Assembly (NCBI GenBank): GCA_963840035.1
Contig: CAWIXE010000002.1
Location: forward strand, 992,099-1,056,098
Direction of reading: 5' to 3'
From: a candidate division FCPU426 bacterium
GTDB lineage: Bacteria > Oederibacteriota > PGYV01 > Palsa-1178
Length of the DNA: 64,000 nucleotides
How positions within the stretch are numbered: the stretch's first letter is position 1; every line of letters starts with the position of its first letter. The notes below the pieces were generated by a model. That model worked only from the letters and a program-made list of their open reading frames with translations. It ran no database searches and was not told the DNA's origin. Positions 4,727-60,362 of this stretch are shown piece by piece. A program made the translations under genes and the position numbers.

Positions 4727-4782
4727 ATAAACACCTCTCCCTTTTTTTATATATTAACATGAAAAACGGGGGGTGTAAAGAC

Positions 4783-4856
4783 CATTGACAATTGTTGATT
4801 GACGATTGACAATTAATTACTACAACAATCAAAAAAGCAATTGTCAATTGTCAATT
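4783..4856. promoter_or_regulatory. cluster of ATTGACAATT direct and inverted repeats (candidate operator/hairpin) between PilZ gene stop and TPR-protein gene start
   Basis: 'cattgacaattg', 'gattgacgattgacaatt' and inverted 'caattgtcaattgtcaatt' within 75 bp. Confidence 0.35.
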
Positions 4857-7197: not shown

Positions 7198-7373
7198 GTC
7201 GCTCACCTCCTTCGCAGTTCCCCTCTCATTTGTAATATAGCTCACAAATGATTTTTTGTCAAGTATTATGTTAAGTATATTGTTAGTATTTAACTAAAGT
7301 GCACGAAAACGCCACTAAAATATGGTGAATTTTTGAAATATCGAATATTGTGTTTTTTGATTTTTTGCGTTTT

Positions 7374-10152: not shown

Positions 10153-10331
10153 CATTTCTCCTTTTTCCCCAATAAAACAATTATATTTTATCACGTCTTA
10201 CATATATTAGTCAATTTTTAACCAAATTAGTTCCGTTTAAAAGCCCAATCGTAAATCAACAACAAACAACTTCGCAGCACTTATGCTTTTCCATTATATG
10301 CCCGCACAAGCAACAAAATAGTCAGGTTTTC

Positions 10332-10395
10332 GTAGAGACACAGCTTGCTGTGTCTCGCCTTTCAACGTCTGAGACGCAGCAAGCTGCGTCTCTAC
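10332..10395. repeat. 64-bp GTAGAGA...TCTCTAC double-hairpin repeat, copy A
   Basis: 'gtagagacacagcttgctgtgtctcgcctttcaacgtctgagacgcagcaagctgcgtctctac'; two adjacent perfect hairpins; ~97% identical to copy B. Confidence 0.8.
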
Positions 10396-10450
10396 AAAAA
10401 TCCGACTCATCAAGTAGTTCTTAGAATTGCCGTATTACATTTAAAAGCAA

Positions 10451-11147: not shown

Positions 11148-11211
11148 GTAGAGACACAGCTTGCTGTGTCTCGCCCTTCAACGTCTGAGACGCAGCAAGC
11201 CGCGTCTCTAC
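11148..11211. repeat. 64-bp GTAGAGA...TCTCTAC double-hairpin repeat, copy B
   Basis: Same sequence as 10332..10395 with 2 substitutions; lies between uvrA stop and RDD gene start. Confidence 0.8.
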
Positions 11212-11226
11212 AAAAAACAGAACAGG

Positions 11227-16301: not shown

Positions 16302-16392
16302 AGCTTAAAACTGAAAGCTTAAAACTGAAAATTGAGTCAAAACCGGACTTGAAATATTATTTCATTTTCAGTTTTCAGCTTTAAACTTTAAA
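16302..16392. repeat. simple-sequence imperfect inverted repeat at operon junction
   Basis: 'agcttaaaactgaaagcttaaaactgaaaattga' vs downstream 'ttcattttcagttttcagctttaaactttaaa'. Confidence 0.6.
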
Positions 16393-17580: not shown

Positions 17581-17629
17581 AAGGGCGAATTTTCAATTTT
17601 AAATTTTATATTTTCAATTAACACCGGAA

Positions 17630-18518: not shown

Positions 18519-18668
18519 GTCATTGCGATGAGGCGCCTATTACTTCGCCGACAAAGTCCTTCGACTTCGCTCAGGGCCATGAGCCTGTCGAATGGCAATC
18601 TGGCTGTTTTAGAACTTAAACCAGATTGCTTCGTCGCCATAAATCAAATACGGCTCCTCGCAATGACA
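18519..18668. repeat. ~150-bp palindromic MITE/REP-like intergenic element, copy 2
   Basis: TIRs 'gtcattgcgatgagg' / 'cctcgcaatgac'; shares identical 48-nt core with 2623..2780; sits between panC and panB. Confidence 0.75.
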
Positions 18669-18690
18669 GTCCTTAACATTCACGCCATGC

Positions 18691-19479
18691 TTAATAATAA
18701 TTCTTTTTACCCGGGAACTTCCTGCCTCTGACGTCAGCCGAGAATTTTTTTACGGCTGTCACGGTGCGCGCCGCTATCTTTTCATATTGTTTTACAAACG
18801 ACGGCTTGAAATCCTCAAACGCTCCGAGCATGTCGTGCGTGACAAGCACCTGTCCGTCGCACCATGGCCCCGCGCCTATGCCGATGACCGGCACTTTTAC
18901 AGCTTTTGTTATCTCAGCGGCTGTTTTTGCCTCTGTTTTTTCCAGGACAATCGAGAAAACGCCGGCTTTTTCCAGCTGCATGGCTTCCTGTATAAGGCGC
19001 TGCTTGTCTTCCTCTGTCCTTCCCTGCACCGGATACCCGCCGTATTTATTCACTGACTGGGGCTGAAGCCCTATGTGGCCCATGACAGGCACGCCTATGG
19101 CTACCAGCGCCTTAACCTGCGGGATTATCTCTGCCCCGCCTTCTATTTTTACGGCGGACGCGCCTGATTCTTTCATTAACTTTCCGCAGTTCTTCAGCGC
19201 GTCTTTTACGGAAGCCTGATACGTCATGAACGGCATATCAGCCACAACCATGGTTTTTAACGCGCCGCGCTTTACCGATTTCACGTGGTAAATAACCTCT
19301 TCAAGCGTAACCGGAAGAGTGTCTTTTATCCCCTGAAAAACCATTCCAAGGGAATCGCCCACCAGTATTATATCGACGCCTGATTTTTCGAGGTATGACG
19401 CCATCAGGTAATCATACGCGGTAAGCATAACTATCTTCTGTTTTGACTTAAGTGATTTGACGAACGGGGCGGTAAGCAT
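18691..19479 (-). CDS. panB: 3-methyl-2-oxobutanoate hydroxymethyltransferase
   Basis: 'KIVMLTAYDYLMASYLEKSGVDIILVGDSLGMVFQG' PanB signature. Confidence 0.9.
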   Translation of the reverse strand: MLTAPFVKSLKSKQKIVMLTAYDYLMASYLEKSGVDIILVGDSLGMVFQGIKDTLPVTLEEVIYHVKSVKRGALKTMVVADMPFMTYQASVKDALKNCGKLMKESGASAVKIEGGAEIIPQVKALVAIGVPVMGHIGLQPQSVNKYGGYPVQGRTEEDKQRLIQEAMQLEKAGVFSIVLEKTEAKTAAEITKAVKVPVIGIGAGPWCDGQVLVTHDMLGAFEDFKPSFVKQYEKIAARTVTAVKKFSADVRGRKFPGKKNYY

Positions 19480-20127
19480 TTATTTCTCCTGCCTCGGGGT
19501 GTAATAGTTTATGCCGCCTTTAATATTCAGCACATAATTTTTTATCATCTGGTAGGCCTTTTTGTCAGAGGCAAAATCCACCTCGTCAGTATTTACAATG
19601 GCAAGCGGCGCCGATGTAAACGTGGAGAAAAAGTGGTTATAGGCCTGCGTGAGGTTGTATAAGTATTCCTTGGAAACTGATTTTTCAAAACTGCGTCCGC
19701 GCTTTTTTATCCTTTCCATAAGCGTTTCAATGGAAGCCTGCAGATAAATCACCAGATCCGGCTTTGCCAGGTTGCCTTCGTTGACAACGCTGGAGTATAT
19801 CTTTTCATACAGGTTAAGTTCGTTTTCATTTAGGGTGATATACGCGAATATGCGGTCCTTTTCTATAAGGTAATCCGCCACTATCTTTTTTGAAAAGAGG
19901 TCCATCTGCTTTAAGGGTTCCTGCTGCATGGCGCGGTTGACCAGGAATGTAAGCTGGGTCTGAAGGGCAAACGTGTCCATATCCTTATAAAATTTCTCAA
20001 GGAAAGGGTTATTGTCAACCTGCTCTAATACGATCTTTGCCTCAAGGTCGTCCGCAAGCATCTTGGCAAAAGTGGTCTTGCCGACACCGAGGACCCCCTC
20101 AACCGCTATATAGTGAAAATCCTTCAT
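19480..20127 (-). CDS. deoxynucleoside kinase family protein
   Basis: P-loop 'IAVEGVLGVGKTTFAKML' and dNK-like layout, 215 aa. Confidence 0.75.
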   Translation of the reverse strand: MKDFHYIAVEGVLGVGKTTFAKMLADDLEAKIVLEQVDNNPFLEKFYKDMDTFALQTQLTFLVNRAMQQEPLKQMDLFSKKIVADYLIEKDRIFAYITLNENELNLYEKIYSSVVNEGNLAKPDLVIYLQASIETLMERIKKRGRSFEKSVSKEYLYNLTQAYNHFFSTFTSAPLAIVNTDEVDFASDKKAYQMIKNYVLNIKGGINYYTPRQEK

Positions 20128-20610
20128 TTACAGCTCTCCAATCTTTTTTACGGATTCGCTGAAATTGCCATTTTTTAAGAGTTCTTTTATTGTTAATTTA
20201 AGGGCCGGATGAACGAAATCCGCCGCTATTTCCGATAAAGGCTCAAGCACAAACCTTCTTGCCGCTATTTCAGGATGCGGAATTTTAAGTTTTTCGCTGT
20301 CTATAATTATATTCTTATAAAACAATATGTCAATATCTATAATACGCTGGCCCCACCTGTCCGACCTGACCCTTCCCATGTCTTTTTCAATCTTTTTGGC
20401 GGTTTCCAGCAGTTTTTCAGGGTCAAGCTGGGTTTCCACCTGCAGGCAGATATTGTTGTAATCAGGCTGGCTTTTGACGCCTACCGGCTCAGATTCATAT
20501 AAACCTGTCTTTTTTATTATGGTAACGCCATTCTTTTCAAGAAGATGAATAGCGGTACGCAGGTTGTCCGCCCTGCTGCCAATGTTGGTCCCGAGACAAA
20601 GGTATATCAT
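20128..20610 (-). CDS. folK: 2-amino-4-hydroxy-6-hydroxymethyldihydropteridine pyrophosphokinase (HPPK)
   Basis: 'IYLCLGTNIG...RIIDIDILFY' HPPK motifs, 160 aa. Confidence 0.85.
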   Translation of the reverse strand: MIYLCLGTNIGSRADNLRTAIHLLEKNGVTIIKKTGLYESEPVGVKSQPDYNNICLQVETQLDPEKLLETAKKIEKDMGRVRSDRWGQRIIDIDILFYKNIIIDSEKLKIPHPEIAARRFVLEPLSEIAADFVHPALKLTIKELLKNGNFSESVKKIGEL

Positions 20611-21770
20611 TACTTCTTCAGACCCACCTTTTTAAGCCTGTCTATGGCTTTCTGTATCTTATCCTCTTCCACTGTCAGCGCGATACGGAAATACCTGTCG
20701 CCCGAGAGGCCGAATCCGATGCCGGGCGTGATTACCATATCAGCTTCCTCAAGCACCTTTGTGCAGAATTCCATGGATGTGAAGCCTTCCGGCACTTTTA
20801 CCCAAAGATATAGCGTGCCTTTTGATTCAAGGACATCATAACCGAGCGTCTTTAAACCGGCTGTAAAAGCGGCTGCCCTGTTGCGGTAAAGCCCGCGTAT
20901 CTTAGCCGCTTCATCATCACAGTTTGCAAGCGTCCACGCGGCTGTTTCCTGTATGGCCGTAAATGTCCCCGAGTCCATGTTTTCCTTTACCTTGCCAAGC
21001 CCGTCTATGATCTTTTCCGCGCCCACGGCAAAGCCTATCCTCCATCCCGTCATGTTGTATGTTTTTGACATGGAGTAAAACTCGATTACGTGGTCCTTTG
21101 CCCCCTGTATCTGCAGCATGGAAATGGGCGGCGCCCCGAAATAAATTTCCGAATAGGGCGCGTCCTGGGCGATTATGAAATCGTACTTTTCCGCGTAAGA
21201 GAGCGCTTCCTCATAAAACTGATAATCAGCCATGGCTGATGTCGGGTTATTCGGATAGTTTAACCACATTATTTTTGTCTTTTTAAAGACATCTTCCGGT
21301 ATCAGGCTGAAATCAGGGAGAAAATTATTTTCCGCGATGAGCGGCATGACATGCGTCTTTCCTCCGGATAAAAGCGTGCCGGAAGTATAACCGGGATATC
21401 CGGGATCGGGCACAAGCACTATGTCGCCCGGATTAATGAACGCAAGCGGCAGGTGCGTGATACCGTCCTTTGCCCCTATCAGGCAGGCAACTTCCTTATC
21501 AGTGATGGCGACATCAAACCGCTTGTCCATCCAGTCAACAACAGCCTGCTTAAACTGCTTGCTTCCGCGGCCGATAGGATACTGGTGGTTCGACGCCTTT
21601 TGCACAGACTCTTTGAAGTTGTCAATGATGGCCTGCGGAGTCGGCCTGTCCGGGTCGCCTATGCCAAGGTCCAATATGTCCCTGCCCGCCTCTCGCGCGG
21701 CTTTTTTCTTCTTATCCAGTTCAACAAAGACATAGGGCGGTAAAGACTTTAGATTGTTTGAAAATTCCAT
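20610..21770 (-). CDS. dapL: class I PLP aminotransferase, LL-diaminopimelate aminotransferase-like
   Basis: N-terminus 'LPPYVFVELDKKK...GRDILDLGIGDPDRPTP' typical of DapL-type enzymes; located in a dapB-dapA-dapF-lysA cluster lacking dapD/dapC/dapE. Confidence 0.6.
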   Translation of the reverse strand: MEFSNNLKSLPPYVFVELDKKKKAAREAGRDILDLGIGDPDRPTPQAIIDNFKESVQKASNHQYPIGRGSKQFKQAVVDWMDKRFDVAITDKEVACLIGAKDGITHLPLAFINPGDIVLVPDPGYPGYTSGTLLSGGKTHVMPLIAENNFLPDFSLIPEDVFKKTKIMWLNYPNNPTSAMADYQFYEEALSYAEKYDFIIAQDAPYSEIYFGAPPISMLQIQGAKDHVIEFYSMSKTYNMTGWRIGFAVGAEKIIDGLGKVKENMDSGTFTAIQETAAWTLANCDDEAAKIRGLYRNRAAAFTAGLKTLGYDVLESKGTLYLWVKVPEGFTSMEFCTKVLEEADMVITPGIGFGLSGDRYFRIALTVEEDKIQKAIDRLKKVGLKK

Positions 21771-21868
21771 AACGTTCTCCTTCTTGGTAACCGCAACCTT
21801 TAGGCCGCGATACCGGGTATATTTTGTCCGCAGGCTGAAGCCTGCGACTACCGGAATTTAATGTATAA

Positions 21869-22630
21869 CTAGCGTACGTAGTTAATAAGTCGTCCTATTT
21901 CGCCTATTTCAACTTCCACTTTATCCCCGCGTTTCATGGGGCCAATCCCCGCTGGGGTTCCGGTGCTTATCACGTCTCCCCTGTTTAAGGTCATAACTTG
22001 CGATACAAAGCTCACTATTTTTCTCATTTTAAATATAAATTTCGACGTGTTCGAATCCTGCTTCAATTCTCCGTTTAAGTAAAGTTTTATATCCTGTTTG
22101 TCAGGATTTATATCTTTAACTATGTAAGGCCCGATCGGGGCGAATGTGTCGAACGACTTTGCCCTTGTCCACTGTCCGTCCACGCTCTGAAGGTCACGCG
22201 CGGTAATGTCGTTAAAGCACGTATACCCCAGGACGTTCATGTCCACCATGTCCTCGGAGATGTTTTTGCATGTGTTCTTGATTATTACCGCAAGCTCCGC
22301 CTCAAAATCCACGCGCGACGACATTTCCGGGTATATTATCTCGTCCATGTGGCCTATTAATGACGACGGCGGTTTCAAAAATATTACCGGTTCCTTTGGC
22401 TTGTCAGCTTTCATTTCCTTCGCGTGGTCGGAATAATTAAGCCCCACGCAAATAATCTTTGAAGGTTCGCATGGCGGCAGTATGCGCACCCTGCCGAACT
22501 CAATGACATTGGGCATGACCTTATACTGCGTATATATGTCGCCTTCTATATCGGTAATGTTCTTGTTATTATTAACTATACCCCACTGCGCCGGACTGCC
22601 TTCTATCGAATAACGCACGAACTTAAGCAT
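21869..22630 (-). CDS. fumarylacetoacetate hydrolase (FAH) family protein
   Basis: 'KIICVGLNYSDHAKEM...PVIFLKPPSSLIGH...FEAELAVIIK' FAH-fold motifs. Confidence 0.75.
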   Translation of the reverse strand: MLKFVRYSIEGSPAQWGIVNNNKNITDIEGDIYTQYKVMPNVIEFGRVRILPPCEPSKIICVGLNYSDHAKEMKADKPKEPVIFLKPPSSLIGHMDEIIYPEMSSRVDFEAELAVIIKNTCKNISEDMVDMNVLGYTCFNDITARDLQSVDGQWTRAKSFDTFAPIGPYIVKDINPDKQDIKLYLNGELKQDSNTSKFIFKMRKIVSFVSQVMTLNRGDVISTGTPAGIGPMKRGDKVEVEIGEIGRLINYVR

Positions 22631-22647
22631 GAAGACTCCTCAATGAT

Positions 22648-22764
22648 CGGGAATGGGGAATTGGGAATGGGGAATGGCAGACATAACATCCAGCCACAAA
22701 CCCAAAAACCAAATCCTTACGCCCTTTATTATTGCCATTCCCTATTGCCCATTCCCTATTCCCC
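22648..22764. repeat. simple-sequence imperfect inverted repeat filling the FAH-dapB intergenic region
   Basis: 'cgggaatggggaattgggaatggggaatggcag' vs 'ttgccattccctattgcccattccctattcccc'. Confidence 0.65.
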
Positions 22765-22766
22765 AC

Positions 22767-23546
22767 TTACAGCCCCAACACATCCGCCATCGTATACATG
22801 CCCGGCTGTTTGCCGGCTACAAACTTCGCCGCCTTTAAAGCGCCCATTGCCAGTGTTTCCCTGGAAAAAGCCGTATGTGATATTTCAAGCTTATCGCCCA
22901 TGGAACCGAATATGACTGTGTGCTCGCCGACTATGCCTCCGGCGCGTACCGCGAAGACTCCGATTTGATCCCTGTTTCTTTCATTATTCCTGCCGTCCCT
23001 GCCAAAGACCATGTTGGCTTTCGGGTCAAGCCCTTTTTCCCTGAGGATTACTTCCGCCGTTGTTAAAGCCGTGCCTGACGGCGCGTCTTTTTTCATCCTG
23101 TGATGGGATTCCACTATGTCAATATCATAATCTTCTTTTAATGCCTTTGTAGCCTCTTTGAGCAGCTTCCACATGACATTAATGCCGACGGAATAGTTTG
23201 AGGACAGGACTATGGGTATTTTCTTGGACGCGGTCTCAATCTCAAATAATTCATTCGCGTCAAATCCCGTAGTGCCGATCACCATGGGTTTCTTCGCCTC
23301 TACAAGCGCTTTTATGTGGTTAAGCGTGGCAACAGGCGTGGTAAAGTCTATAAAAACATCCGTGCCCGCTACGCCGGACTTCAGGTCATCGCTGATGGTA
23401 AACCCGTTTATGTTTCCGCCGACAGCTTTGTTTCCTTTCGCCTCAAGCAGCATGGAAATACGGAAATCATCCGGCTGCTGCGCGGCTGAAGATATAAGAG
23501 CCTGCCCCATACGGCCGGCCGCCCCGGAAATGCCTACTTTTAACAT
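22767..23546 (-). CDS. dapB: 4-hydroxy-tetrahydrodipicolinate reductase
   Basis: 'MLKVGISGAAGRMGQ' NAD(P) motif and 'ESHHRMKKDAPSGTA' catalytic motif. Confidence 0.9.
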   Translation of the reverse strand: MLKVGISGAAGRMGQALISSAAQQPDDFRISMLLEAKGNKAVGGNINGFTISDDLKSGVAGTDVFIDFTTPVATLNHIKALVEAKKPMVIGTTGFDANELFEIETASKKIPIVLSSNYSVGINVMWKLLKEATKALKEDYDIDIVESHHRMKKDAPSGTALTTAEVILREKGLDPKANMVFGRDGRNNERNRDQIGVFAVRAGGIVGEHTVIFGSMGDKLEISHTAFSRETLAMGALKAAKFVAGKQPGMYTMADVLGL

Positions 23547-23634
23547 AAAATCCTCCTTGTTAGTTCAAAGCCCAGAGACCAAAGCTCAAGTAAAACCTGA
23601 CTTGGGCTTTTTAACCTTGAGCTATGGGCTTGAT

Positions 23635-24513
23635 TTATATCTTTATCCCGTAATCCTTCATAGCTTTCTTAATCTTCTCGAGGTTTTCTCCGTCCGGAAC
23701 AGTCATCGGAAGCCTGATCTCGGTCTCTACTAATCCCATTAAGGCGGCGGCTGCTTTCACCGGGATCGGGTTTGTCTCTATGAACATCGCTTTTATCAGC
23801 GGGAACATTCTGTGGTGCATGGCCTGCGCTTTCTTAATGTCGCCTTTTTCAAAAGCCGTCACCATTTCTTTTACATCCTTCGGGATAATATTCGCGACAA
23901 CCGATATAATACCCTTTCCGCCTATGGCCAGCAGCGGGAGCGTGAGCGCGTCATCGCCCGAGAGCACGTCAAAATCAGGGCCGCACTGTTCTATGACTTC
24001 GCTCATCTGAGCGAGGTCTCCGCTTGCTTCCTTGACGCCTTTTATATTCGGGCATTCCTTGGCAAGCCTGGCAAGCGTTGAAGTGGCGACATTAACCCCT
24101 GTCCTGCCCAGTATGTTATAAACTATGACAGGTATCTTTACGGACTGCGAAATAGCTTTAAAGTGTTCATATAAACCCTTTTGCGTGGGCTTGTTGTAGT
24201 AAGGGTTTACCACGAGGGCCGCGTCAGCGCCCGCCTTTTCCGCCGCCTGCGTGTATTCGATGGCTTCAGCCGTGGAATTCGACCCTGTTCCGGCCATGAC
24301 CTTCATGCGCTTGTTCACAAGTTTTACTGTAAGCGCGATTAAGTGTTCATGTTCTTCAGGCGTTAAAGTCGGCGACTCGCCCGTTGTTCCCGCGGGCACA
24401 ATCCCGTCAGTGCCGGCGGCAGCGTGCATTTCAATGAGCCTCTTATAAGCTTCCTCGTCGAGCTTCCCGTTCTTAAACGGGGTTACGATTGCTACGTAGG
24501 ATCCGCTAAACAT
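23635..24513 (-). CDS. dapA: 4-hydroxy-tetrahydrodipicolinate synthase
   Basis: 'AIVTPFKNGKLDEEAYKRLIE...GTTGESPTL' DapA signature. Confidence 0.9.
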   Translation of the reverse strand: MFSGSYVAIVTPFKNGKLDEEAYKRLIEMHAAAGTDGIVPAGTTGESPTLTPEEHEHLIALTVKLVNKRMKVMAGTGSNSTAEAIEYTQAAEKAGADAALVVNPYYNKPTQKGLYEHFKAISQSVKIPVIVYNILGRTGVNVATSTLARLAKECPNIKGVKEASGDLAQMSEVIEQCGPDFDVLSGDDALTLPLLAIGGKGIISVVANIIPKDVKEMVTAFEKGDIKKAQAMHHRMFPLIKAMFIETNPIPVKAAAALMGLVETEIRLPMTVPDGENLEKIKKAMKDYGIKI

Positions 24514-24557
24514 GATAGACCTCCAGAAATTTTCAATTTTATATTTTCAATTTTCTA

Positions 24558-25370
24558 TTACCATTTTAATGCTTCAGGACCCGCCATGCCTTCGGCTACA
24601 ACCCTTGCGTTACCTTCAAGAAAAACATCATTAATTATGCCGCCGTTATCCTTGAAATATATCGTCAGTTTTCCGCCTTTGGCAAAGAGCGTTACCGGCG
24701 ATTTTGCCACGCCGTTTAAATACAGCGCGATGCCCGCGGCTGTCGCGCCTGTGCCGCACGCGTAAGTTTCAGCTTCCACTCCGCGCTCATACGTCCTTAT
24801 GGCGAATGAATTCTTGCCTGTTTTCTGGACAAAATTTACGTTTGTGCCCTTAGGGCCGAACACCCTGTGAAACCTGAGCATCCTTCCCGTCTTTGCCACA
24901 TCAACTTTTTTTATATCCTTAACCGGCACCACAAAATGCGGCACTCCGGTATTCATGAAAGCGCCTTCCACTCCGCCCGCTGTAACCGCTTTTTTTATGT
25001 CAAAAGGGTCTGTCATGCCAAGTTTCACTTCTCCGTTGGGCTTTACCTGGGCCGTATGCGGCCCGTCATTGGCCATGAACTTAACCGTCGTTCCGGAGTA
25101 TCCCTTCAGGTAAGAGAACCTGGAAATGCACCTCGCGCCGTTTCCGCACATGTCAGCTTCTTTGCCGTTGTTGTTATAAAACTTCATGGTAAAATCAAAT
25201 CCCTTTGAAGGCTTATTCAAAAGTATAAGCCCGTCAGCGCCTATGGAAAACCTGTTAGCGCAGAGCGCGGCTATTTCCTTAGCGGAAAGTTTTATCTTCC
25301 CCTTGTAATTGTCTATCACTATAAAATCATTCCCGTTGCCGGACATCTTGGTGAAGCGCAGTTCTTTCAT
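24558..25370 (-). CDS. dapF: diaminopimelate epimerase
   Basis: 'FTKMSGNGNDFIVIDN' and second-half Cys motif 'YERGVEAETYACGTGATAAG'. Confidence 0.9.
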   Translation of the reverse strand: MKELRFTKMSGNGNDFIVIDNYKGKIKLSAKEIAALCANRFSIGADGLILLNKPSKGFDFTMKFYNNNGKEADMCGNGARCISRFSYLKGYSGTTVKFMANDGPHTAQVKPNGEVKLGMTDPFDIKKAVTAGGVEGAFMNTGVPHFVVPVKDIKKVDVAKTGRMLRFHRVFGPKGTNVNFVQKTGKNSFAIRTYERGVEAETYACGTGATAAGIALYLNGVAKSPVTLFAKGGKLTIYFKDNGGIINDVFLEGNARVVAEGMAGPEALKW

Positions 25371-25382
25371 GAATTACTCCTT

Positions 25383-25466
25383 TGATATTTGATATGCGAT
25401 ATCGGATATTAGATATATATCCTTCTGCCTTCAACGTTTATATCTAATATCAAATATCCAATATCA
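25383..25466. repeat. simple-sequence imperfect inverted repeat between lysA and dapF
   Basis: 'gatatttgatatgcgatatcggatattagatata' vs 'tatatctaatatcaaatatccaatatc'. Confidence 0.65.
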
Positions 25467-25475
25467 CACATGCCC

Positions 25476-26717
25476 TTAAATCTCGTTTTCAACCAGCGTA
25501 TCGTAAGTCTCGCGTTTCCTTATGAGTTTGTGCTCGCTTCCGTCCACCATCACCTCAGCCGCGCGCGGCCTTGAGTTGTAATTGGACGCCATTACCATGC
25601 CGTACGCGCCTGTGGAGCGCACGCACAGGAGCTCCCCGTTTTCTATCTCAGGCATGTGCCTGTCTTTGGCGAGGAAATCCCCGCTCTCGCATATCGGGCC
25701 CACTATGTCGCATACCTGAAGCTTCGAGCCCTTCTTTACATTTACAGGCAGTATCTTGTGGTAAGAACCGTATAATGACGGCCTTATCAAGTCGTTCATG
25801 CCGGTATCGGTTATGATGAAGTTCTTCACGCGCCCTTTTTTATTGTAAGTCACCCTGGAAACAAGCACACCAGCGTTGCCGATGATGAATCTACCCGGCT
25901 CAAGAATCAGCTTTATATCCAGCCCTTCAAGGTACGGCTTTACAGCCTTGGCAAAGACATCGGCTGTCGCCGGTTTTTCCTCGTTGTAAATTATGCCGAG
26001 CCCGCCGCCGATATTAAGGTACTGTATCCGCACGCCTTCCTTACGCAGCTGCTTTACAAACTCGACTATCTTCGTCACCGCGCTTATGTACGGTATGGGC
26101 GTTGTTATCTGCGAGCCTATATGCATATCAACGCCGATCAGATTTATGTGCTTTAACTTCTTAGCGCTCTTATAAAGCCCCAGCGCCAGGTTTATGTCTA
26201 TGCCGAACTTTGATTCCTTCTTGCCTGTATTCACGTAAGCGTGCGTTAAAGCGTCGACGTCAGGATTAATACGCACCGCGATATCAGCCTTCCTTTTCAT
26301 GGACTTGGCTATATCATTTATGGCCTTTAACTCCTCCTGCGACTCCACGTTAAACATAAGTATGCCTGACTTTAAGGCGTACTTTATCTCTTCCTCGGTC
26401 TTGCCGACACCCGCGTATACTATCTTCTTGGGGTCCACACCGGTCCTTAAAGCCCTGAAAAGCTCGCCGCCCGAGACTATATCAAACCCCGCGCCTTCCT
26501 TTTTCATTTCCTTAAGTATGGCGCCGTTTGAATTGGCCTTAACCGAGTAGCATATAAGGGTATCCATACCCGCAAAAGCGTCCTTAACCTTCCTGAAATG
26601 CTCTAAAAAGGTCCTCTTGCTGTAGACATAAAGCGGCGTGCCGTACTTCTCAGCCAGCACGTTAATATCCACATTTTCCGCGTATAAAGTGTTCTTTTTG
26701 TAGTTAAAATAGTCCAT
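25476..26717 (-). CDS. lysA: diaminopimelate decarboxylase
   Basis: Start set at MDYFNYKK (RBS GGAGG upstream); 'YSVKANSNGAIL' PLP-lysine region; C-terminal 'CESGD' motif. Confidence 0.9.
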   Translation of the reverse strand: MDYFNYKKNTLYAENVDINVLAEKYGTPLYVYSKRTFLEHFRKVKDAFAGMDTLICYSVKANSNGAILKEMKKEGAGFDIVSGGELFRALRTGVDPKKIVYAGVGKTEEEIKYALKSGILMFNVESQEELKAINDIAKSMKRKADIAVRINPDVDALTHAYVNTGKKESKFGIDINLALGLYKSAKKLKHINLIGVDMHIGSQITTPIPYISAVTKIVEFVKQLRKEGVRIQYLNIGGGLGIIYNEEKPATADVFAKAVKPYLEGLDIKLILEPGRFIIGNAGVLVSRVTYNKKGRVKNFIITDTGMNDLIRPSLYGSYHKILPVNVKKGSKLQVCDIVGPICESGDFLAKDRHMPEIENGELLCVRSTGAYGMVMASNYNSRPRAAEVMVDGSEHKLIRKRETYDTLVENEI

Positions 26718-27097
26718 TTTAAGCCTCCGTAAATGCGTAAGTGTATAGTTTAAGAAATATAACATAATTGCGTTTTTTAGTCAATTTATAGATATAATGG
26801 CTGATTCGGGATTCTGGATTCTAAATTCTGGATTAAAACATCCCAAAACAATTTTACGCTTTATTTTAAAGCAATTTCCGGAAAACGGCAGACGGGAAGC
26901 TGATTTTTGAATAAGCTAAACGGGCACATAGTCATGCTTCACCTCCTGGTATATCCCAATCAAGCCGGCCCGCCAGACCAAAAACCAACCGTCAATTATA
27001 TCGCCTCAGCATCTCACATTATCACTGCAGCCTCCAGCACACCCCGTCAGCTAATTCAAAAATCAGCTTCCCGCCTGCCGCTTCTACGTGGTCTGTC

Positions 27098-27130
27098 TTA
27101 AAAAAAAAAAGCCCGGCTTTCGCCGGGCTT
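27098..27130 (-). terminator. Rho-independent terminator downstream of SPFH gene (bidirectional form)
   Basis: Hairpin 'gcccggctttcgccgggc' flanked by A11 on one side and T4 on the other; on minus strand GC stem followed by 11 U. Confidence 0.7.
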
Positions 27131-27149
27131 TTAAATTTCAGGATTTGTT

Positions 27150-28025
27150 TTACTGCTGACCCGCCTCGACTTCGTTTATCTGCTTGAGGTCAATTATCAT
27201 CCCGCTTCCATTGCCCGACATGATTTTCGGAAGTTTCCCGTCCCATTTGTCTATCCACATTTTTTTAAGCATTATCCCTGAAAGGGTTGTTTTCTGCATT
27301 CTCTGCGCTTCAGCATCGCCGCGCGCCTGGTTGATTTTCGCCTGAGCTTCAGCCTCAGCCTGCTTTGCCACATAAATGGCTTTCTTTGCGTTTTGCTCAG
27401 CCACCTGTTTTTCCTCGATAGCCCTGTTAAATTCGTCGCCGAAAGTGAAATTCACAAGGCTCACATCAATTACAATTATCCCGTACTTTTCCATCCTGAG
27501 CTTAAAATTATTGTCTATTTCCAGTTTTAAGGATTCCCTTTCGGTTAATATGGACTCCGCGTTCTTTTTAGCCGTTGCCGCCTTTACCACTTCATTGACA
27601 GCCGGGTTCATGATATCGCCGAGCACGTCATTCTCGTCGCCGATGGTCTGGTAAATTTTGTTAACCTGCGCCGGGTCCAGCTTCCAGTTGATCGCAACCC
27701 TTGTATGGACGTTCTGCATGTCCTTTGTCGCCGCCTGAGCGTCAACTTCGGACTTTTGTATCTGTACCGTCATTTTCTTTACAGCCGTAAATATGGGGAC
27801 CCTCCAGTGAAAGCCTTCATCATAAACCTTACTCATATCCACCTTACCGAGGTTAACTATAACACCCCTCTCGCCCGGCCCGATAATGACAAACGGGACA
27901 AGCAGGAAAAACACTACTACAACTACAACTCCAGCAATAAGAAACTTTACAACATTGTTTGTTTCCGGCATGTTAAACACCCCTTCTTTATTTTTGGTTA
28001 ATGGAATTTCGACTTTCCGCGCCAT
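27150..28025 (-). CDS. SPFH/band 7 (prohibitin-like) membrane protein
   Basis: N-terminal TM anchor, SPFH core, Ala/Glu/Gln-rich coiled-coil tail 'AEQNAKKAIYVAKQAEAEAQAKINQARGDAEAQR'. Confidence 0.8.
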   Translation of the reverse strand: MARKVEIPLTKNKEGVFNMPETNNVVKFLIAGVVVVVVFFLLVPFVIIGPGERGVIVNLGKVDMSKVYDEGFHWRVPIFTAVKKMTVQIQKSEVDAQAATKDMQNVHTRVAINWKLDPAQVNKIYQTIGDENDVLGDIMNPAVNEVVKAATAKKNAESILTERESLKLEIDNNFKLRMEKYGIIVIDVSLVNFTFGDEFNRAIEEKQVAEQNAKKAIYVAKQAEAEAQAKINQARGDAEAQRMQKTTLSGIMLKKMWIDKWDGKLPKIMSGNGSGMIIDLKQINEVEAGQQ

Positions 28026-28096
28026 TACATTCCCTCCGTCTGAATAAAATCATATTTAAATCTTATCATGTACCGGCCAATAATCAATAATAAACA

Positions 28097-28867
28097 TTAT
28101 TTTTTCACCGCCGTTATCATCCAATCCCAAGGAAAAGGCTCTTTCATCCATTTCGGCGGGGATTCAAACTCCGTATCCCAGCCATATTCCACCTTTTCAA
28201 ATTCAAGGCCGGTAAATCCGTATTTCGGGAGCATCACTTCAAGCTCCTCCTTCAGATAATGTTTTGTTGTGACGTTATCAATGTTTATCAGGCCATGGCA
28301 GACAGAACCTTTTCTTTTATGCGTCGATCTTAATCCGTCTTCTATGGCTTGTTTACGGCTCACGCCGGTGTTTAAGTTCCATTCAAAGAGCCTGCAATTG
28401 ACATAAAGCGACGACTCATGCGAAGGCACAACAAAAACCATACATCCGCCTTTTGCCACGCAGGCGCTGATGTTTTTTAGTATTTTATCCCGTATAACCT
28501 GCGATTCCGCAATAAGCACATTTGTACATATCCCGAACTTTACAGGCCTATTTAACGGCTTCTTTTTAGCCAGGTCTGCCTGTGAAAAATCCACATTTTT
28601 ATATTTAGCGTACTTCTTTATCGCCTTGTCCACCAGCTGTCGCGAAAGGTCCATGGCGTATACATGTTTAAAAGAGGCAGCCAGCAGCGGAATATAAAGC
28701 CCGATACCGCAGCCAAAATCAGCGGCAGCGACACTCTTTGACGCAAATTTGTTTATGCGTTTCCTTATAACCCCGCGCATGTCGCTGTCGAGTGAGCTGA
28801 ATATTTCTTCCTCATAGCTCTTGGCAAGCTTATCCCAGTATTTTTTATCCACTTCCGCCCCTTTCAT
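28097..28867 (-). CDS. class I SAM-dependent methyltransferase
   Basis: Motif I 'AADFGCGIGLY'. Confidence 0.7.
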   Translation of the reverse strand: MKGAEVDKKYWDKLAKSYEEEIFSSLDSDMRGVIRKRINKFASKSVAAADFGCGIGLYIPLLAASFKHVYAMDLSRQLVDKAIKKYAKYKNVDFSQADLAKKKPLNRPVKFGICTNVLIAESQVIRDKILKNISACVAKGGCMVFVVPSHESSLYVNCRLFEWNLNTGVSRKQAIEDGLRSTHKRKGSVCHGLINIDNVTTKHYLKEELEVMLPKYGFTGLEFEKVEYGWDTEFESPPKWMKEPFPWDWMITAVKK

Positions 28868-28948
28868 ATTTATTTTATGGTTTTATTATACCATTGTCAA
28901 ATATACTTGTCTAAAACATTAATGTATAGCCGGGGTTTTATTTTCATG

Positions 28949-28976
28949 TTGAAAAACCGGGCAGATACTATATAAT
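28949..28976 (+). promoter_or_regulatory. sigma70-like promoter TTGAAA-N16-TATAAT
   Basis: -35 at 28949..28954, -10 at 28971..28976, about 40 nt upstream of the ATG at 29017. Confidence 0.4.
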
Positions 28977-29016
28977 TAGAGTATATTATAAACGCTGTCA
29001 AACATACTACCCCGAG

Positions 29017-29412
29017 GTGCTTATGCCGGCAATTGACGACCCTGTTTCAAAGGTTAAGCTGGGATTCACCAGCGTCAATGGCAAAAGACTTTTCCGCGCC
29101 GAACTTAACGATTACAAGGGAGAGAATTTTGACGAGCTGCTAGTTAGGGGCGGCAAATTCATAAGGAATGAACCTCCCGGTTCAGTGCTTTGTCTTTGTG
29201 TCTTTAACGACCATACGCCAATGGTCACCAATAAAAACGACATTTCCGAATATTTGAAGGCCAATAAACCCTACATAAAAGCCTCCGCAGCCTGCGGCTT
29301 TAACAAATTCTTCACACCTATTTACAACGCTATCTTTTCCATATCCGGCAGGCAGGATATCAGGGTTTTCAGCAGTGAAAAAGAAGCCACCGACTGGCTC
29401 TTATCACGGTAA
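29017..29412 (+). CDS. small hypothetical protein, possibly STAS/SpoIIAA-like fold
   Basis: 131 aa; C-terminal '...DIRVFSSEKEATDWL' resembles anti-sigma-antagonist-like endings; own promoter and terminator. Confidence 0.4.
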   Translation: MLMPAIDDPVSKVKLGFTSVNGKRLFRAELNDYKGENFDELLVRGGKFIRNEPPGSVLCLCVFNDHTPMVTNKNDISEYLKANKPYIKASAACGFNKFFTPIYNAIFSISGRQDIRVFSSEKEATDWLLSR

Positions 29413-29420
29413 AATAAAAA

Positions 29421-29447
29421 GGGCGCGGTTTTACCCGCGCCCTTTTT
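29421..29447. terminator. bidirectional Rho-independent terminator
   Basis: 'aaaaagggcgcggttttacccgcgccctttttc': GC stem with A-run upstream and T-run downstream; between convergent genes. Confidence 0.7.
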
Positions 29448-29457
29448 CATTTATACC

Positions 29458-31860
29458 TTAGATCATTTCGAACTTCAAAACAATCTCACCGGATACCGTG
29501 CCAAACCCTGCCTTTTCAAAGATCTTCCTGAGCGTCTCATTATCAGCGCCTTTTCCTTTATAACTTTTTACCGTTACAGACTTAACTTTGCCGTTCTCAA
29601 CCCTGAGCTGTACTTCCAAACCTGTCAGCCCGTTATCCGCAAAGTACTTGTTCAGTTCATTCTTTATCTTCCCAAATACTTCAGTCTCAGCTTCATCCAG
29701 GGTATATCCGGCAGGCACACTGCCGTCGGAAATTGCGAGTGATGAGCCCGCATTTGCTGTTGCCGCATCGTCGGTAGAACTCTTATCCTTCTTCCCCCAC
29801 GAACCAAACCCCAGCTGAAGCTTTGATGACTCTTCTTTTTCTTCAGCCAAATCATACAGCGGTTCAGATGCCGGCGCGTTTGACATCATCTTCATGGCGC
29901 GCGTAGAACTTCCGCCGGAGTATCCTGAGTAATTGGCCGGAGCAGCCGCGGCCTGCAGCTGCGTCCCTACCGCATTATCGCTTACGCCTTCAGGCAGCGG
30001 GAGCGGCTGTTTTACAGTAACCACTTCGCCTGTTTCCCTGACCACTTTATCTACCGCTACAAAAGATGTGTAGGCTGTCATCAGATGGTACTTTAAGCCA
30101 AGCTCTGTCACTTCATCCTTAACATTCGCGCCCACTTTGGAGTAATCATCAAGCCTGGCCACTTTTTCGCGGGCCCAGAGGTACTTAATCGCTTCATTTC
30201 TCGGGTCCTGCTCATATCCGCCCATATTTATTACCTTTTCAAATTTTCCGTTTGCCGACATGCCGGTTACTATTATCCTGCCTGACGCGTGTTTATATTT
30301 GCCCGATATAACCAGAGGCCTCTGCGCGAAAAGGTCCGGGACTGATTCAGGTTCAACGTCATACGCGTCAAAGCCTTCATACTTTACCTTTATGTCCGTC
30401 AATACAGGCGACTTTATGTAACTTATGAACTTATCAGCTGCTGCCTGCGCCTCGTCCTGCCCCGTTACAACGAACGGCTCGCCTTTTCCCATCCTTGCCA
30501 TGCCTTCAATTAAAAACCTGTTCACGGATGTGCCGATGCCGAAAGAGAAAAAGTTTGCGCTGCCCATCTTTTTGGCCATCAGGTCAAAAACTTCCTTTTC
30601 AACCGAGATGTAACCGTCCGTCATCGTAACAATAATGCGCGACATGCCTTCTTTTTTCGCCAGGCCTGAAGCCTTTGTAAAAGCCTCGAGTATTTCAGTG
30701 CCGCCCGAGCCTTCCTGTTTGGTTATCATCTCTATGGCTTTGTTCCTGTTATTGGATGTGGCAGGCATGGGTTTCTCAAAAAGCGTGTTTGACCCGCCGG
30801 CAAAGAACATGATATTGAAGTAGTCCTGTCCGCGCAGGTTTGAAAGTATTTCTTTAATGACTTTCTTGGATATTTCCAGCGGGAACCCGCTCATGGAGCC
30901 TGATACGTCCATAATGAAGAGGTATTCCCTCGGAGGTATCATTGACGCTTCAACCTTTGCCGGAGGCTCTATCATGGTCAGGAAGAAGTTCTCATCCTGC
31001 CCCGGATAAAGAAGCACGCCGGTATTTATGGCATTGCCCCTGAGCGAATACTTAAGGATGAAATCCCTGTTGCCGCCGTTCTCTTCCTTGGGTGATAACG
31101 CGACCTTCACGTTATTGCCGTCTGTAAAGTCGGTAATAATCTTGTGCGACGGCGACCATGCTTTCGCGACCATGATACCCGACTTGATATTCACGTTCAT
31201 GCCGAATGTATACGGCGCAAGCTTGCCTTCGTGCTGATACGGATTAACCGTCCAGTTGTCCTTGCCTTTTAAGTCCTCAGTTGAAGACTCTCCGGTAAAC
31301 CTGGGCCCCACAACCGTCGGAAAAATAAAGCCGTATTCGCCTGCGTCAGGTATGAGCGCTTCGGAATAGTAAACAGTCACTTCTACCTTATCACCGGGCA
31401 TGATGTTCGCCACGTTCATCTGGAAAACATTCGGCCTTTTCTGTTCCAGCAGCGATGCTGTCTTGCCCTGATTCTTTGCCGCTTCGTAAATCTGCCTTGC
31501 CTCTTCAGTTTTGTGGATGTCAGCTTCGATTATTCTGGTCCCTATCTGCATCCTCATGGCGTTAATCGCCGACTTGGTACCCAGAGGAAATACGTAAATC
31601 GCCTCTATGGTTTTCTTCCCGTCATTCTTATAAACCTGTTTGAGTTCGGTCTGAGCCACCATTCCCGCGATGCTCACATTAGCCGTAGTAGAAAGCAAAG
31701 GAAACCCCTCAACATCCCCCGCGCCCTGCACCAGGAAGTAAGGTGAAAGTGACTCCTTATCCTCCTTGGCAAAAAGACTAATCATGCTTAAAGCTAAAAA
31801 CACAACAACAAACAACAACACCTTAACCCTCATCCTTCCCCTTATCCTTAGCTGTTCCAT
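29458..31860 (-). CDS. secreted VIT domain + von Willebrand factor type A domain protein with C-terminal TonB-C-like module
   Basis: Start set at MEQLRIRGRMRVKVLLF (RBS AAGGAGG); vWA MIDAS motif 'FIMDVSGSMSG'; VIT-like N-terminal region. Confidence 0.7.
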   Translation of the reverse strand: MEQLRIRGRMRVKVLLFVVVFLALSMISLFAKEDKESLSPYFLVQGAGDVEGFPLLSTTANVSIAGMVAQTELKQVYKNDGKKTIEAIYVFPLGTKSAINAMRMQIGTRIIEADIHKTEEARQIYEAAKNQGKTASLLEQKRPNVFQMNVANIMPGDKVEVTVYYSEALIPDAGEYGFIFPTVVGPRFTGESSTEDLKGKDNWTVNPYQHEGKLAPYTFGMNVNIKSGIMVAKAWSPSHKIITDFTDGNNVKVALSPKEENGGNRDFILKYSLRGNAINTGVLLYPGQDENFFLTMIEPPAKVEASMIPPREYLFIMDVSGSMSGFPLEISKKVIKEILSNLRGQDYFNIMFFAGGSNTLFEKPMPATSNNRNKAIEMITKQEGSGGTEILEAFTKASGLAKKEGMSRIIVTMTDGYISVEKEVFDLMAKKMGSANFFSFGIGTSVNRFLIEGMARMGKGEPFVVTGQDEAQAAADKFISYIKSPVLTDIKVKYEGFDAYDVEPESVPDLFAQRPLVISGKYKHASGRIIVTGMSANGKFEKVINMGGYEQDPRNEAIKYLWAREKVARLDDYSKVGANVKDEVTELGLKYHLMTAYTSFVAVDKVVRETGEVVTVKQPLPLPEGVSDNAVGTQLQAAAAPANYSGYSGGSSTRAMKMMSNAPASEPLYDLAEEKEESSKLQLGFGSWGKKDKSSTDDAATANAGSSLAISDGSVPAGYTLDEAETEVFGKIKNELNKYFADNGLTGLEVQLRVENGKVKSVTVKSYKGKGADNETLRKIFEKAGFGTVSGEIVLKFEMI

Positions 31861-31972
31861 ATATTTCCTCCTTTTTCCGGGCGTTCGCCCTGTGTTTTGT
31901 GCCTTCACTGAGGAAGACACCAACCCGGGAAAAAGGTTCCATAATAAAACGCATTATTTATAAGGCCATTTG

Positions 31973-31997
31973 TAGGGACAGCGCTCCCGCGCTGTCC
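31973..31997. repeat. GC-rich hairpin, inverted duplicate of hairpin at 32062..32083
   Basis: 'tagggacagcgctcccgcgctgtcc', palindromic stem 'ggacagcgc'/'gcgctgtcc'. Confidence 0.7.
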
Positions 31998-32045
31998 GCG
32001 CGGGGATTATGTTATGATTTTTAAACGTGGCTATAAATTCAGGTG

Positions 32046-32083
32046 AAAAAAAAACGCCGGCGGACAGCGCGGGAGCGCTGTCC
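32046..32083 (-). terminator. Rho-independent terminator immediately after 32084..32602 gene
   Basis: Minus strand reads 'ggacagcgctcccgcgctgtcc' followed by 'gccggcg' and U9. Confidence 0.65.
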
Positions 32084-32602
32084 CTACTCTGCGTACACCC
32101 ATTCAAAATCTCTTATTTTACTATTCCAATAAGCAATCGCGCTGTCAGCGTGAAACCGTTTAAACATGATTACCGGCGTTTTAAAAGTCCGGCCCTGCCA
32201 TGTCCCGGTGAAACTTTCCAGGCTGAGGTTATCCGGTAAGGATTTATACTTTCCCAGGAAATATTTCCTGTAATTGGAGCCTTCGCTGATCAAAGCGATA
32301 GCCTGAGCGGAAAAATTCACAACAACCCCGTTTTCCACCACATCCGACCTGACAATAAAGGCATAATCCTTTATGCCGTCAGAGTTAAAATCCGTGTTTA
32401 CATATCCCGGGCTTTTTAGTGTTATCTTGTGTTTCTTTAAAAAGGTTAAAAAATCATCGCTTAAATCCTTTACAGTCATTGTCCTTGCGTCAGGGCCGAA
32501 TGACATGAGCACGCTTTCAAAATTAAGGCCTTCAATTGGCCAGATCTGTGAAAAACAGAAAACAGGAAGTAATATTAAAACAAGTACAAAGATTTTTTTC
32601 AT
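32084..32602 (-). CDS. secreted hypothetical protein
   Basis: 172 aa, signal peptide MKKIFVLVLILLPVFCFSQ; no recognised motif. Confidence 0.5.
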   Translation of the reverse strand: MKKIFVLVLILLPVFCFSQIWPIEGLNFESVLMSFGPDARTMTVKDLSDDFLTFLKKHKITLKSPGYVNTDFNSDGIKDYAFIVRSDVVENGVVVNFSAQAIALISEGSNYRKYFLGKYKSLPDNLSLESFTGTWQGRTFKTPVIMFKRFHADSAIAYWNSKIRDFEWVYAE

Positions 32603-35395: not shown

Positions 35396-37470
35396 CTACC
35401 TCACACACACCAGCTTCTCAAACCCCTGCGCCTTTTCCCCTGTCTCTATCTGCGCTGTGACCGAGTATATAAAAGTCCCTGAAGCTATGTGTCTTTTTGC
35501 CCTGTTTTTTCCGTCCCAGTGGAAGTTATTATGGCCGGCTTTCGCGTTTATGCCGCATTCTTCTATGACTATCTCGCCTGATACGGTAAACACCCTCACG
35601 CACACCTCAGCGTCCCTTGAAAGCCAGTAAACTATGTTTGTGTCCTCGGCAAAAGGGTCGTTATAATTGCCTTTTAGTATAAGCTGTAACCGCGGAGTTA
35701 CCGGGGTAACAGTTGCAGACGCCTGCGGTGTCGAAGTTACTGTGCGGGTCGGTGTTGCAGTAATTGTCTTTGTAAATGTCAATGTTGGTGTAATTGTCCT
35801 TGTTATTGTTTTTGTCGGGGTAAATGTCATGGTCTGAGTTTTTGTAATCGTATCTGAAACAGTCATTGTCGGCGTTATGCTGAAAGTTGTTGTCATGGTC
35901 TGCGACGGTGTCAGTGTTTGCGTGACAGAATTAGTCAGGGTGACTGTCCGGGTCGGCAGAAGCGTTTCTGTGTGTGTTACGGTATAACTCGGGGTCTCAG
36001 TCAAGGTATCCCCGGGCGTCTGCGTCTGTGTATAAGTCGGGGTCCTGGTAAAAGTCGGCGAATTCGGACTTGTTGCGGTCCTTGTCGCTGTTCTTGTTCC
36101 GGTCGGAGTGCGCGTTGGCGTTACTGTAGCGGTAGAAGTGGATACGAAATCCGTCATCCCTGACCCGCCCGGATAGCCATATCCATCCTGGTCGTCAAAA
36201 CCGTACACGTTGACGCCTATTGGAAGCGGTGAAATAATGTTGTGGCTCCCGACCCCGACGCTTACGCGCGTGGCCGAAAAACCGCTGGATGCAATAGAAA
36301 TAAAACTACCCGCAGGTATAACCGAACCGTCAACTGATAATAGCCCGGCTGCGGCGTCAGGGGCAGTGATATTTAAATAATTCGCAGAGAAACCGGATTG
36401 TGGCGTCCCAACAGTGTAATTATCCAGATACTGCTCGACAGGTTCTATAATCATCATGAACGGGTCGCCGGTTGTGGAATCAAACATGGTGCTGTTTGAA
36501 TACTGCATAACAAGCACCCGGTTGTTCGAAGTTATCATTCCCGCCCCGCTGATTAACGCCTCAAAAAACGCGCCTTTGACCATAGGCGACGGGTTTAAAA
36601 GAGCCCCGTCAAGGTACAGGTATGTGCCGTTTTGTGACGCCATAATTCTGTAGGTATCGGTCCCTGACCTTCCCGCAAGCGGAACGATAATAAATTGTTT
36701 CCCCCAGCTCGATGTCGGGGCAGCTGTTCCACAAGGTAATTGCAGTAGTTGGATGACACCGGGATATCCGCGCAGATATGGCCCCCGAAAACAGCAATAC
36801 GCCTGTCAGAATCCACGGTTGTTCCGGTTAAATCCTCACTGCCGGGATTGTCATCTCGCAGTAAATAGACCTGCCCTTTATTCAGAATTACGTCATACGG
36901 GACATTCTGGATCCTGCCGCCTATCGTGCAGTTAAGCCTGATTGTCACCGTGGTGTTATCTTCGACAGCCACTACGGCAAATTCACTTCCTACCGGGTTA
37001 TTTACGCCGCCGTTATTGAATGAAAGAATTATATGGTTGGTGCCAAGCGCTTCCACAGGAAGGCCCAAAAACGCGTCTGTAATGACAGGGCTGTGCGAAT
37101 AACCGTATACGGTTACCGGATCAGCCGAGGTTACATGTATACCCCTCACCGAAACAACGTCGCTGTCAAAAACGTCGCTGTTCCATGGCAGGTCCACATA
37201 GGTTATAGCGCCGGCAGTCACATTTACATTTTTGTTAAACGTCAGGACCGGCGATAAGGATATGGTCATGTTCACGGTTGCTGTCGTATTGGTCTGTGAA
37301 GTGATGAGTATTTGCTTTGCAGGCGATATTCCCGAACTGTAAGGCGAATAATATGACCCCGGGATGCAAATCCAGAAATCAGTCCCTTCGCTGGTGGGTG
37401 AAGAAAATGCATAAAACGGCATTATGAAAAGATATGCCATTACTGTCAAAACCTTAATTTTTAATTTCAT
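35396..37470 (-). pseudogene. frameshifted gene for secreted IgGFc-binding-like domain protein with Thr-rich linker and T9SS-type C-terminal domain
   Basis: ORFs 36595..37470 and 35396..36643 are one gene: the '...NYCNYLVEQLP' frame continues as 'PTSSWGKQFIIVPLAGRSGTDTYRIMASQNG...' in the next frame; shift at G4 run 36717..36720. Confidence 0.6.
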
Positions 37471-60291: not shown

Positions 60292-60362
60292 TCTGCACCT
60301 TTTGTTTCTATGATTTATGACACAATTTGTAATTTGTCATTGGTAATTAGTAATTAAGCCCT

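Follow-up and report, generated by a model that had tools for sequence, protein, structure and literature searches.

The lysA upstream region

The window analysed here is the whole 64-kb (64,000-nucleotide) stretch of DNA, in which lysA, the first gene of lysA-dapF-dapA-dapB, follows an MTase-SPFH operon on the minus strand. Position 27150 is the end of the SPFH (Band_7) gene, and after it comes an intrinsic terminator with an 11-bp stem (7 GC) and a run of 11 T, which also scores as a terminator on the plus strand; by our own reading, the putative promoter of this operon is TAGACA-17-TATAAT. From the terminator to the lysA ATG there are about 380 nt, a length that the sequence-only reading of this DNA gave correctly and interpreted as the untranslated region of lysA. 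The features of the spacer and its borders are the following:

27097..27132, minus strand: intrinsic terminator of the MTase-SPFH operon, stem-loop at 27107-27132 and T-run at 27097-27106
27042..27083, minus strand: 5' arm (in the lysA sense) of a long inverted repeat, AAGCGGCAGGCGGGAAGCTGATTTTTGAATTAGCTGACGGGG
26925..27041, minus strand: interior of the inverted repeat, 117 nt, with no more structure than shuffled sequence on either strand
26883..26924, minus strand: second (3') arm of the repeat, CCCGTTTAGCTTATTCAAAAATCAGCTTCCCGTCTGCCGTTT, with 36 of its 42 positions complementary to the first arm
26861..26935, minus strand: mini-ORF of 24 codons, MTMCPFSLFKNQLPVCRFPEIALK, with codons 4-18 encoded by the repeat arm
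26803..26834, minus strand: tandem array of a CAGAATC-like heptamer, 4.6 copies, between the inverted repeat and the lysA promoter, one of many in the lineage
26756..26784, minus strand: lysA promoter, with TTGACT as the -35 box (26784-26779), TATATT as the -10 box (26761-26756) and, between them, 17 nt that end in TGT
25476..26717, minus strand: lysA (diaminopimelate decarboxylase), true start MDYFNY at 26717, preceded by GGAGG at 26724-26728

A long inverted repeat with an unstructured interior

An inverted-repeat search delimited an element of 201 bp (26883-27083) whose 42-nt arms are 86% complementary and stand 117 nt apart, and no other inverted repeat in the 64-kb window is as long. The 27-bp stem described from the sequence alone is thus real and forms part of a longer one. 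Its core is the 27-mer ATTCAAAAATCAGCTTCCCGYCTGCCG, of which there are exactly two occurrences, one on the minus strand (26886-26912) and one on the plus strand (27054-27080); the repeat had been placed at the right position with ends off by 1-3 nt, and the segment enclosed by the two 27-mers counts 141 nt instead of the proposed ~135 nt. No match to this 27-mer was found in 100 dinucleotide shuffles, even with up to three mismatches allowed, and the inverted repeat is far above chance expectation. The arms differ at six of their 42 positions. Three of these differences are transitions, all of which become G.U pairs on the lysA-sense strand, a weak bias with a chance probability of ~0.125 (about 1 in 8), and the only difference within the core 27-mer is the single G.U pair already pointed out in the sequence-only reading.

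The 226-nt segment that contains the repeat folds at -96.8 kcal/mol on the lysA-sense strand (z = -6.7) and at -67.4 kcal/mol on the opposite strand (z = -6.3). Neither strand of the 117-nt interior showed an excess of folding with respect to shuffled sequences (z = +0.77 and +1.28), and the long stem itself is the only significant structure of the element. When the interior was scanned for promoters, neither strand gave a sigma-70-like site whose spacer measured 16-18 nt; the best promoter-like site was GTGATA-19-TATAAT, with a 19-nt spacer, and the standard scan gave no promoter on the plus strand. Additionally, the scan found no promoter-like site in the interval between the terminator T-run and the repeat, which measures 14 nt and is therefore too short to hold a promoter of the repeat's own on the lysA-sense strand.

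lysA has a conserved promoter downstream of the repeat

The lysA loci of relatives named here L005, L014, L007, L009, L015 and L019/L023, whose LysA proteins are 84, 83, 81, 81, 79 and 75% identical to that of the window, respectively, were compared with it. All of them retain the lysA-dapF-dapA-dapB order, and the upstream neighbour is different in nearly every one. When the window spacer was aligned to these loci with blastn, only the first lysA codons and a block of 42-44 nt (26785-26742) aligned. In multiple alignments this block reads TTGACTAAA-N8-9-TTATG(T/A)TAT(A)T, and TTGACTAAA..TTATG(T/A)TAT is invariant in the window, L005, L007, L009, L014 and L015; the promoter is also present in L019/L023, with a diverged spacer. 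A consensus scan independently picked out the same site, which matches 10 of 12 positions and carries a TG. As the block is conserved in the relatives and the consensus scan agrees, we place the lysA promoter at 26784-26756. Transcription would then start near 26749, giving a 5' untranslated region of about 32 nt, so that what had been taken for a ~380-nt leader corresponds to the distance between terminator and start codon and not to a transcribed leader. The distance from the end of the inverted repeat at 26883 to the -35 box downstream of it is 98 nt, and since the repeat lies between a strong terminator and the lysA promoter it would enter the lysA mRNA only through read-through of that terminator.

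Conservation of the promoter block extends beyond the hexamers, with AAA after the -35 box, TTATG before the -10 box and TCTTAAACTWTA after it (window 26742-26785; L005 3894-3935; L009 3880-3923; L019 2921-2964), and TCTTAAACTWTA is found downstream of the lysA promoter in the 75% group (L019/L023) as well. Judged from the alignments, this extended conservation could reflect an overlapping operator for a regulator of the dap/lys operon. Some relatives have a further motif, AAAACCGGRCATTNTTATTTTG, on the upstream side of the lysA promoter, with two copies in direct repeat in L007 (3853-3902) and L014 (about 19-70) and one copy in L009 (about 3548-3572); the window does not have it. This motif is a possible regulator-binding site.

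Searches for a lysine riboswitch agreed with the statement, made from the sequence alone, that no L-box is recognisable. Rfam cmscan over 26300-27500, on both strands and at E<=10 with 4227 families, gave no match to the lysine riboswitch (RF00168). It returned 27 weak sub-threshold matches, 25 of which fall on the SPFH terminator, and none inside 26883-27041. At gathering scores, there were no Rfam matches in the whole 64-kb window or in five orthologous loci. The element shares with the L-box its position upstream of a lysine-biosynthesis gene, but it differs in having no model match at E<=10, an unstructured interior and a location upstream of the promoter, and the loci of the relatives also lack a lysine riboswitch. 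An L-box was therefore ruled out, as there is no covariance-model match and the repeat stands upstream of the promoter instead of in the 5' untranslated region. A leader-peptide attenuator does not fit either, because only two of the 24 mini-ORF residues are Lys, the ORF lies upstream of the promoter and no terminator separates it from lysA. Taken from sequence evidence, the inverted repeat is not part of the lysA transcript and is not a riboswitch, and the suggestion that it might be a different regulatory device within the lysA leader fails because it lies upstream of the conserved promoter.

The mini-ORF

The 24-codon ORF overlapping the 3' arm and its strong ribosome binding site are both present as had been described, apart from a shift of 2 nt in the ORF coordinates. 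The Shine-Dalgarno sequence AGGAGGTG occupies 26940-26947, 4 nt ahead of the ATG. The pattern AGGAGG-N4-9-ATG has six sites in the window, five of which are starts of long genes, the sixth being the mini-ORF. In second-order Markov shuffles, ORFs of this type with 24 or more codons came up by chance ~0.96 times per window, so one incidental ORF is to be expected. As two thirds of the mini-ORF (codons 4-18) are dictated by the repeat arm, both the ORF and its Shine-Dalgarno sequence are probably incidental. The encoded peptide has two Lys in 24 residues, non-adjacent and without any lysine run, and a role as lysine leader peptide was rejected on this ground and because the ORF is upstream of the lysA promoter. 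Furthermore, a six-frame query against 5.8 billion proteins found no homologue in any frame, and the Logan gene calls on the same DNA placed no gene at the mini-ORF.

Distribution among relatives

None of the relatives examined has this inverted repeat upstream of lysA. The SPFH orthologues (71-74% identity) occupy other neighbourhoods and have no such repeat downstream, and the idea that the repeat belongs to an SPFH cassette was rejected for these reasons. In L019/L023, lysA is divergent from a 129-aa gene across a plain 168-nt spacer without repeat. The homologue of this gene in the window is ORF131 (29017-29412, plus strand; 46% identical), and because it adjoins lysA in L019/L023, the MTase-SPFH operon and the repeat sit between ancestral neighbours. 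The alignment of the window with L005 is anchored at the 3' end of the VIT/VWA gene (29522-29458) and at the lysA promoter. The closest database genome has a LysA 84% identical to that of the window and no genome keeps the SPFH-lysA adjacency, so an empty-site comparison is impossible. The LysA homologues at 51-73% identity that have a name are labelled Candidatus Goldbacteria/Goldiibacteriota, and the organism of the window is therefore probably related to that phylum.

Two relatives have long inverted repeats of their own, which lie some 50 nt before the lysA promoter and have arms 88-91% complementary: L005 at 3742-3846 (33-nt arms, 39-nt spacer) and L009 at 3629-3830 (34-nt arms, 134-nt spacer). 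Local alignment of the upstream regions showed no significant similarity of either to the repeat of the window. A likeness seen by eye to arms in L005 and L007 (GGCAGNCGGG..GATTTTT) was also discarded as homology, since its local alignment scores did not exceed those of dinucleotide shuffles.

Copy number

No second copy of the 27-mer exists in the 64-kb window with up to three mismatches, nor was one found in about 120 kb of the relatives' loci by 14-mer search and blastn. Exact scans of larger collections returned chance matches only: three in the GTDB species genomes (20-mers), all in Bacteroidota; one in the JGI metagenomes (20-mers), in coding sequence; and two in IMG/VR (18-mers). All of these matches had flanks unrelated to those of the element, and the matches were coding wherever the sequence was read. 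Plasmids and phages gave no blastn match, and the concatenated six-frame translation of the element gave none among the 5.8 billion proteins.

The Logan assembly holds each 31-mer just once by construction (PMC12424806). In the run of the source sample, ERR11594406, a k=31 contig is identical to window positions 18639-31998 and continues unbroken through 26883-27083. Its ends lie inside the two-copy GTCATTGCGAG family (18519-18668) and a perfect 28-nt inverted repeat (31972-32087). Since the contig passes through the repeat and breaks at these two others, near-identical copies elsewhere in the genome are unlikely; diverged copies are possible. Where a full genome is absent, contig breaks of this kind may be used to gauge the copy number of a repeat.

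No target-site duplication was found; comparing the flanking sequences CCACGTAG and TCCGGAAA at each plausible boundary gave no direct repeat. Additionally, no large ORF of the 64-kb window has a transposase or recombinase domain.

Comparison with known mobile and palindromic elements

Well-known bacterial MITEs and foldback elements include Correia/NEMIS in Neisseria, ERIC/IRU in enterobacteria and RUP/BOX in pneumococci. The element of the window has the shape of a MITE, with terminal inverted repeats (42 nt), a size of 201 bp (below ~600 bp) and no coding content, but no dispersed copies were found in the sequences searched. The suggestion of a MITE in the sequence-only reading holds for shape and not for multiple copies, the search for the 27-mer elsewhere having returned no second one. 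With those families it shares a length of about 200 bp, non-coding sequence, long imperfect terminal repeats that could fold into a long hairpin if transcribed, a position that follows a terminator and precedes the next promoter, and absence from the orthologous sites of relatives. It differs from them in its one detectable copy, the lack of a target-site duplication, the absence of any parent IS or transposase among what was found, and a sequence unlike any element in the databases searched.

REP and REPIN elements are GTAG-headed palindromes mobilised by RAYT transposases. A GTAG before the 5' arm prompted this comparison, and the intergenic inverted-doublet geometry is indeed shared; however, neither arm is a palindrome or contains a hairpin of its own, there is no GTAG at the other end, and the spacer is 117 nt long instead of a few tens, so that this identity was rejected. 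Other candidates were rejected by inspection: a retron ncRNA (no reverse-transcriptase gene downstream), an integron attC site (no RYYYAAC/GTTRRRY cores), a Tn3-type TIME (GGGG at the inner and not the outer ends) and IS66-like GTAA ends (at one end only).

Other repeats and features of the window

Heptamer arrays of 4-5 units, with a different unit at each site, are found in many spacers, including those within lysA-dapF-dapA-dapB (4780-4856, 16302-16391, 17588-17619, 22649-22763, 24528-24559, 25381-25471, 26803-26834 and 60324-60355). At four of these sites, two arrays stand in inverted orientation and form hairpins of 28-38 nt (e.g. GGGAATG x4 with ATTCCCT x4), and the relatives L005, L007 and L014 have heptamer arrays with other units at equivalent spacers. 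They resemble the STRR repeats of cyanobacteria. A similar resemblance is seen to the intergenic TAACTGA repeats of Beggiatoaceae (PMC4679880). The arrays of the window differ from both in having no common unit.

Three REPIN-like elements (10320-10407, 11148-11221 and 31972-32087) consist of inverted doublets of short GTAG-headed hairpins (GTAGAGACACAGCTTGCTGTGTCTC; GTAGGGACAGCGCTCCCGCGCTGTCC). Two copies, 95-97% identical, flank a gene for a 217-aa RDD-like protein, and no RAYT transposase is present in the 64-kb window. Another family, MITE-like and about 160 bp long, has the ends TGTCATTGCGAG...CTCGCAATGACA and two members in the window, 2622-2781 and 18519-18668, which are 87-90% identical. 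Visual inspection shows an element sharing these ends at about 3890-4070 of the relative L025, downstream of its SPFH orthologue. The inverted repeat upstream of lysA has no sequence relation to these REPIN-like and other palindromic elements of the window.

One IgGFc_binding domain at 35396-37470 is divided between two minus-strand ORFs that overlap each other, its N-terminal half (PF17517 positions 1-127) lying in 36595-37470 and its C-terminal half (positions 147-297) in 35396-36643. This suggests that the gene is frameshifted or split, or that the sequence contains an error. Two further genes contain in-frame tandem repeats, one for an NHL-repeat protein (5272-7245; 30-nt units at 5954-6223) and one for a TPR protein (7374-9512; 54/108-nt units at 8776-9207).

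Origin and possible roles of the repeat

In our view, the best explanation, to which we give a probability of roughly 55%, is that 26883-27083 is a lineage-specific, apparently single-copy orphan foldback in a permissive spacer, with no dedicated role for lysA. It might have arisen as a MITE-like insertion, of which it could now be a relic, or as a local inverted duplication, in the non-essential spacer that extends from the MTase-SPFH terminator to the lysA promoter. The lysA-dapF-dapA-dapB operon would be transcribed from its own sigma-70 promoter, with a short untranslated region and no riboswitch. On the rare occasions when SPFH transcripts read through, the 42-bp stem might at most add a barrier or stabilise the 3' end, by analogy with REP and ERIC elements. 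Both the mobile or duplicative origin and the lack of a dedicated function are what we infer from these comparisons, and a transposable nature is unproven, since neither a second copy nor a target-site duplication was found, nor a transposase in the window. In addition, the window has several further intergenic palindromes at comparable places between a gene stop and a gene start, three of them multi-copy, so this genome readily accumulates such elements. The repeat looks like an ordinary intergenic palindrome of a familiar bacterial kind, in a new single instance.

A hairpin that insulates lysA, whether incidental or selected, acting as back-up terminator or 3' stabiliser of MTase-SPFH read-through transcripts and shielding the lysA promoter, is an unlikely alternative with precedents in the insulating and stabilising hairpins of REP, BIME and ERIC elements. 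Its placement would suit this role, as the repeat begins just past the T-run, and UUU closes its 3' arm, with one more U next to it. The stem is also very stable, the G.U bias of the transitions, weak as it is, favours the sense strand, and unrelated long inverted repeats stand at the same relative place in L005 and L009. However, a strong canonical terminator already precedes the repeat, the L005 and L009 repeats have no significant similarity to it, and three of the six lineages have no convincing repeat there. In this regard, about 15% of the spacers of the window (~8 of ~55) hold such repeats, and the chance of finding them in three of six lineages is ~0.05.

We consider it very unlikely that the element is an independent small gene, coding either for a structured sRNA on one of the two strands (the plus-strand RNA ending at the bidirectional terminator) or for the 24-aa peptide. 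The strong, well-spaced AGGAGGTG-N4-ATG speaks for a gene, given that the other five of the six AGGAGG-N4-9-ATG sites are real gene starts, and the MTase-SPFH terminator also scores as one on the plus strand. Against it, neither strand has an acceptable promoter (GTGATA-19-TATAAT being the best), about one such ORF per window is expected by chance, two thirds of this one are set by the repeat arm, the interior is unstructured, and neither a homologue in any frame nor a Logan gene call was found. Overall, we see only a slim chance that a position-specific functional device, be it an insulating or regulatory stem or a separate gene encoding a structured RNA or the 24-aa peptide, is located here.

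Invertible switches such as fimS, the flagellar and cwpV switches of C. difficile and the invertons of Bacteroides also have inverted repeats around a short intergenic segment beside an operon. A recombinase flipping the 117-141-bp interior could in this way alter lysA or SPFH expression, and the geometry suits, with repeats of 27-42 bp around ~120-140 bp of intergenic DNA just upstream of an operon. The element differs from typical invertons in its longer and less perfect arms, in the absence of an internal sigma-70-like promoter in either orientation and in the lack of a nearby recombinase, no recombinase or invertase domain being present in any large ORF of the window. Furthermore, lysA already has its own conserved promoter, a single orientation is seen in two assemblies, both from the same sample, and phase variation would be unexpected for a housekeeping biosynthetic operon. 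All this makes an inverton highly improbable.

Lastly, the long cis-regulatory lysA leader of the sequence-only reading, with stem and mini-ORF as a new riboswitch or attenuator, is barely credible: the repeat is on the lysA-sense side, the G.U pairs favour that strand and the ORF overlaps the 3' arm, but the repeat directly follows a strong terminator and precedes the conserved promoter, it is missing in every relative while operon and promoter are kept, and there is no Rfam match, no excess structure in the interior and no lysine run in the ORF.

Returning to the orphan foldback that we favour, the L005 and L009 repeats at the same spot could still hint at a positional function. For the organism, the lysA-dapFAB operon of this lineage, which is close to Goldbacteria/Goldiibacteriota, would have a sigma-70 promoter with a short leader and no lysine riboswitch, and the case illustrates that mapping a conserved promoter across relatives can exclude a proposed leader RNA. 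The window exemplifies how a small genome gathers unrelated intergenic palindromes and heptamer arrays.
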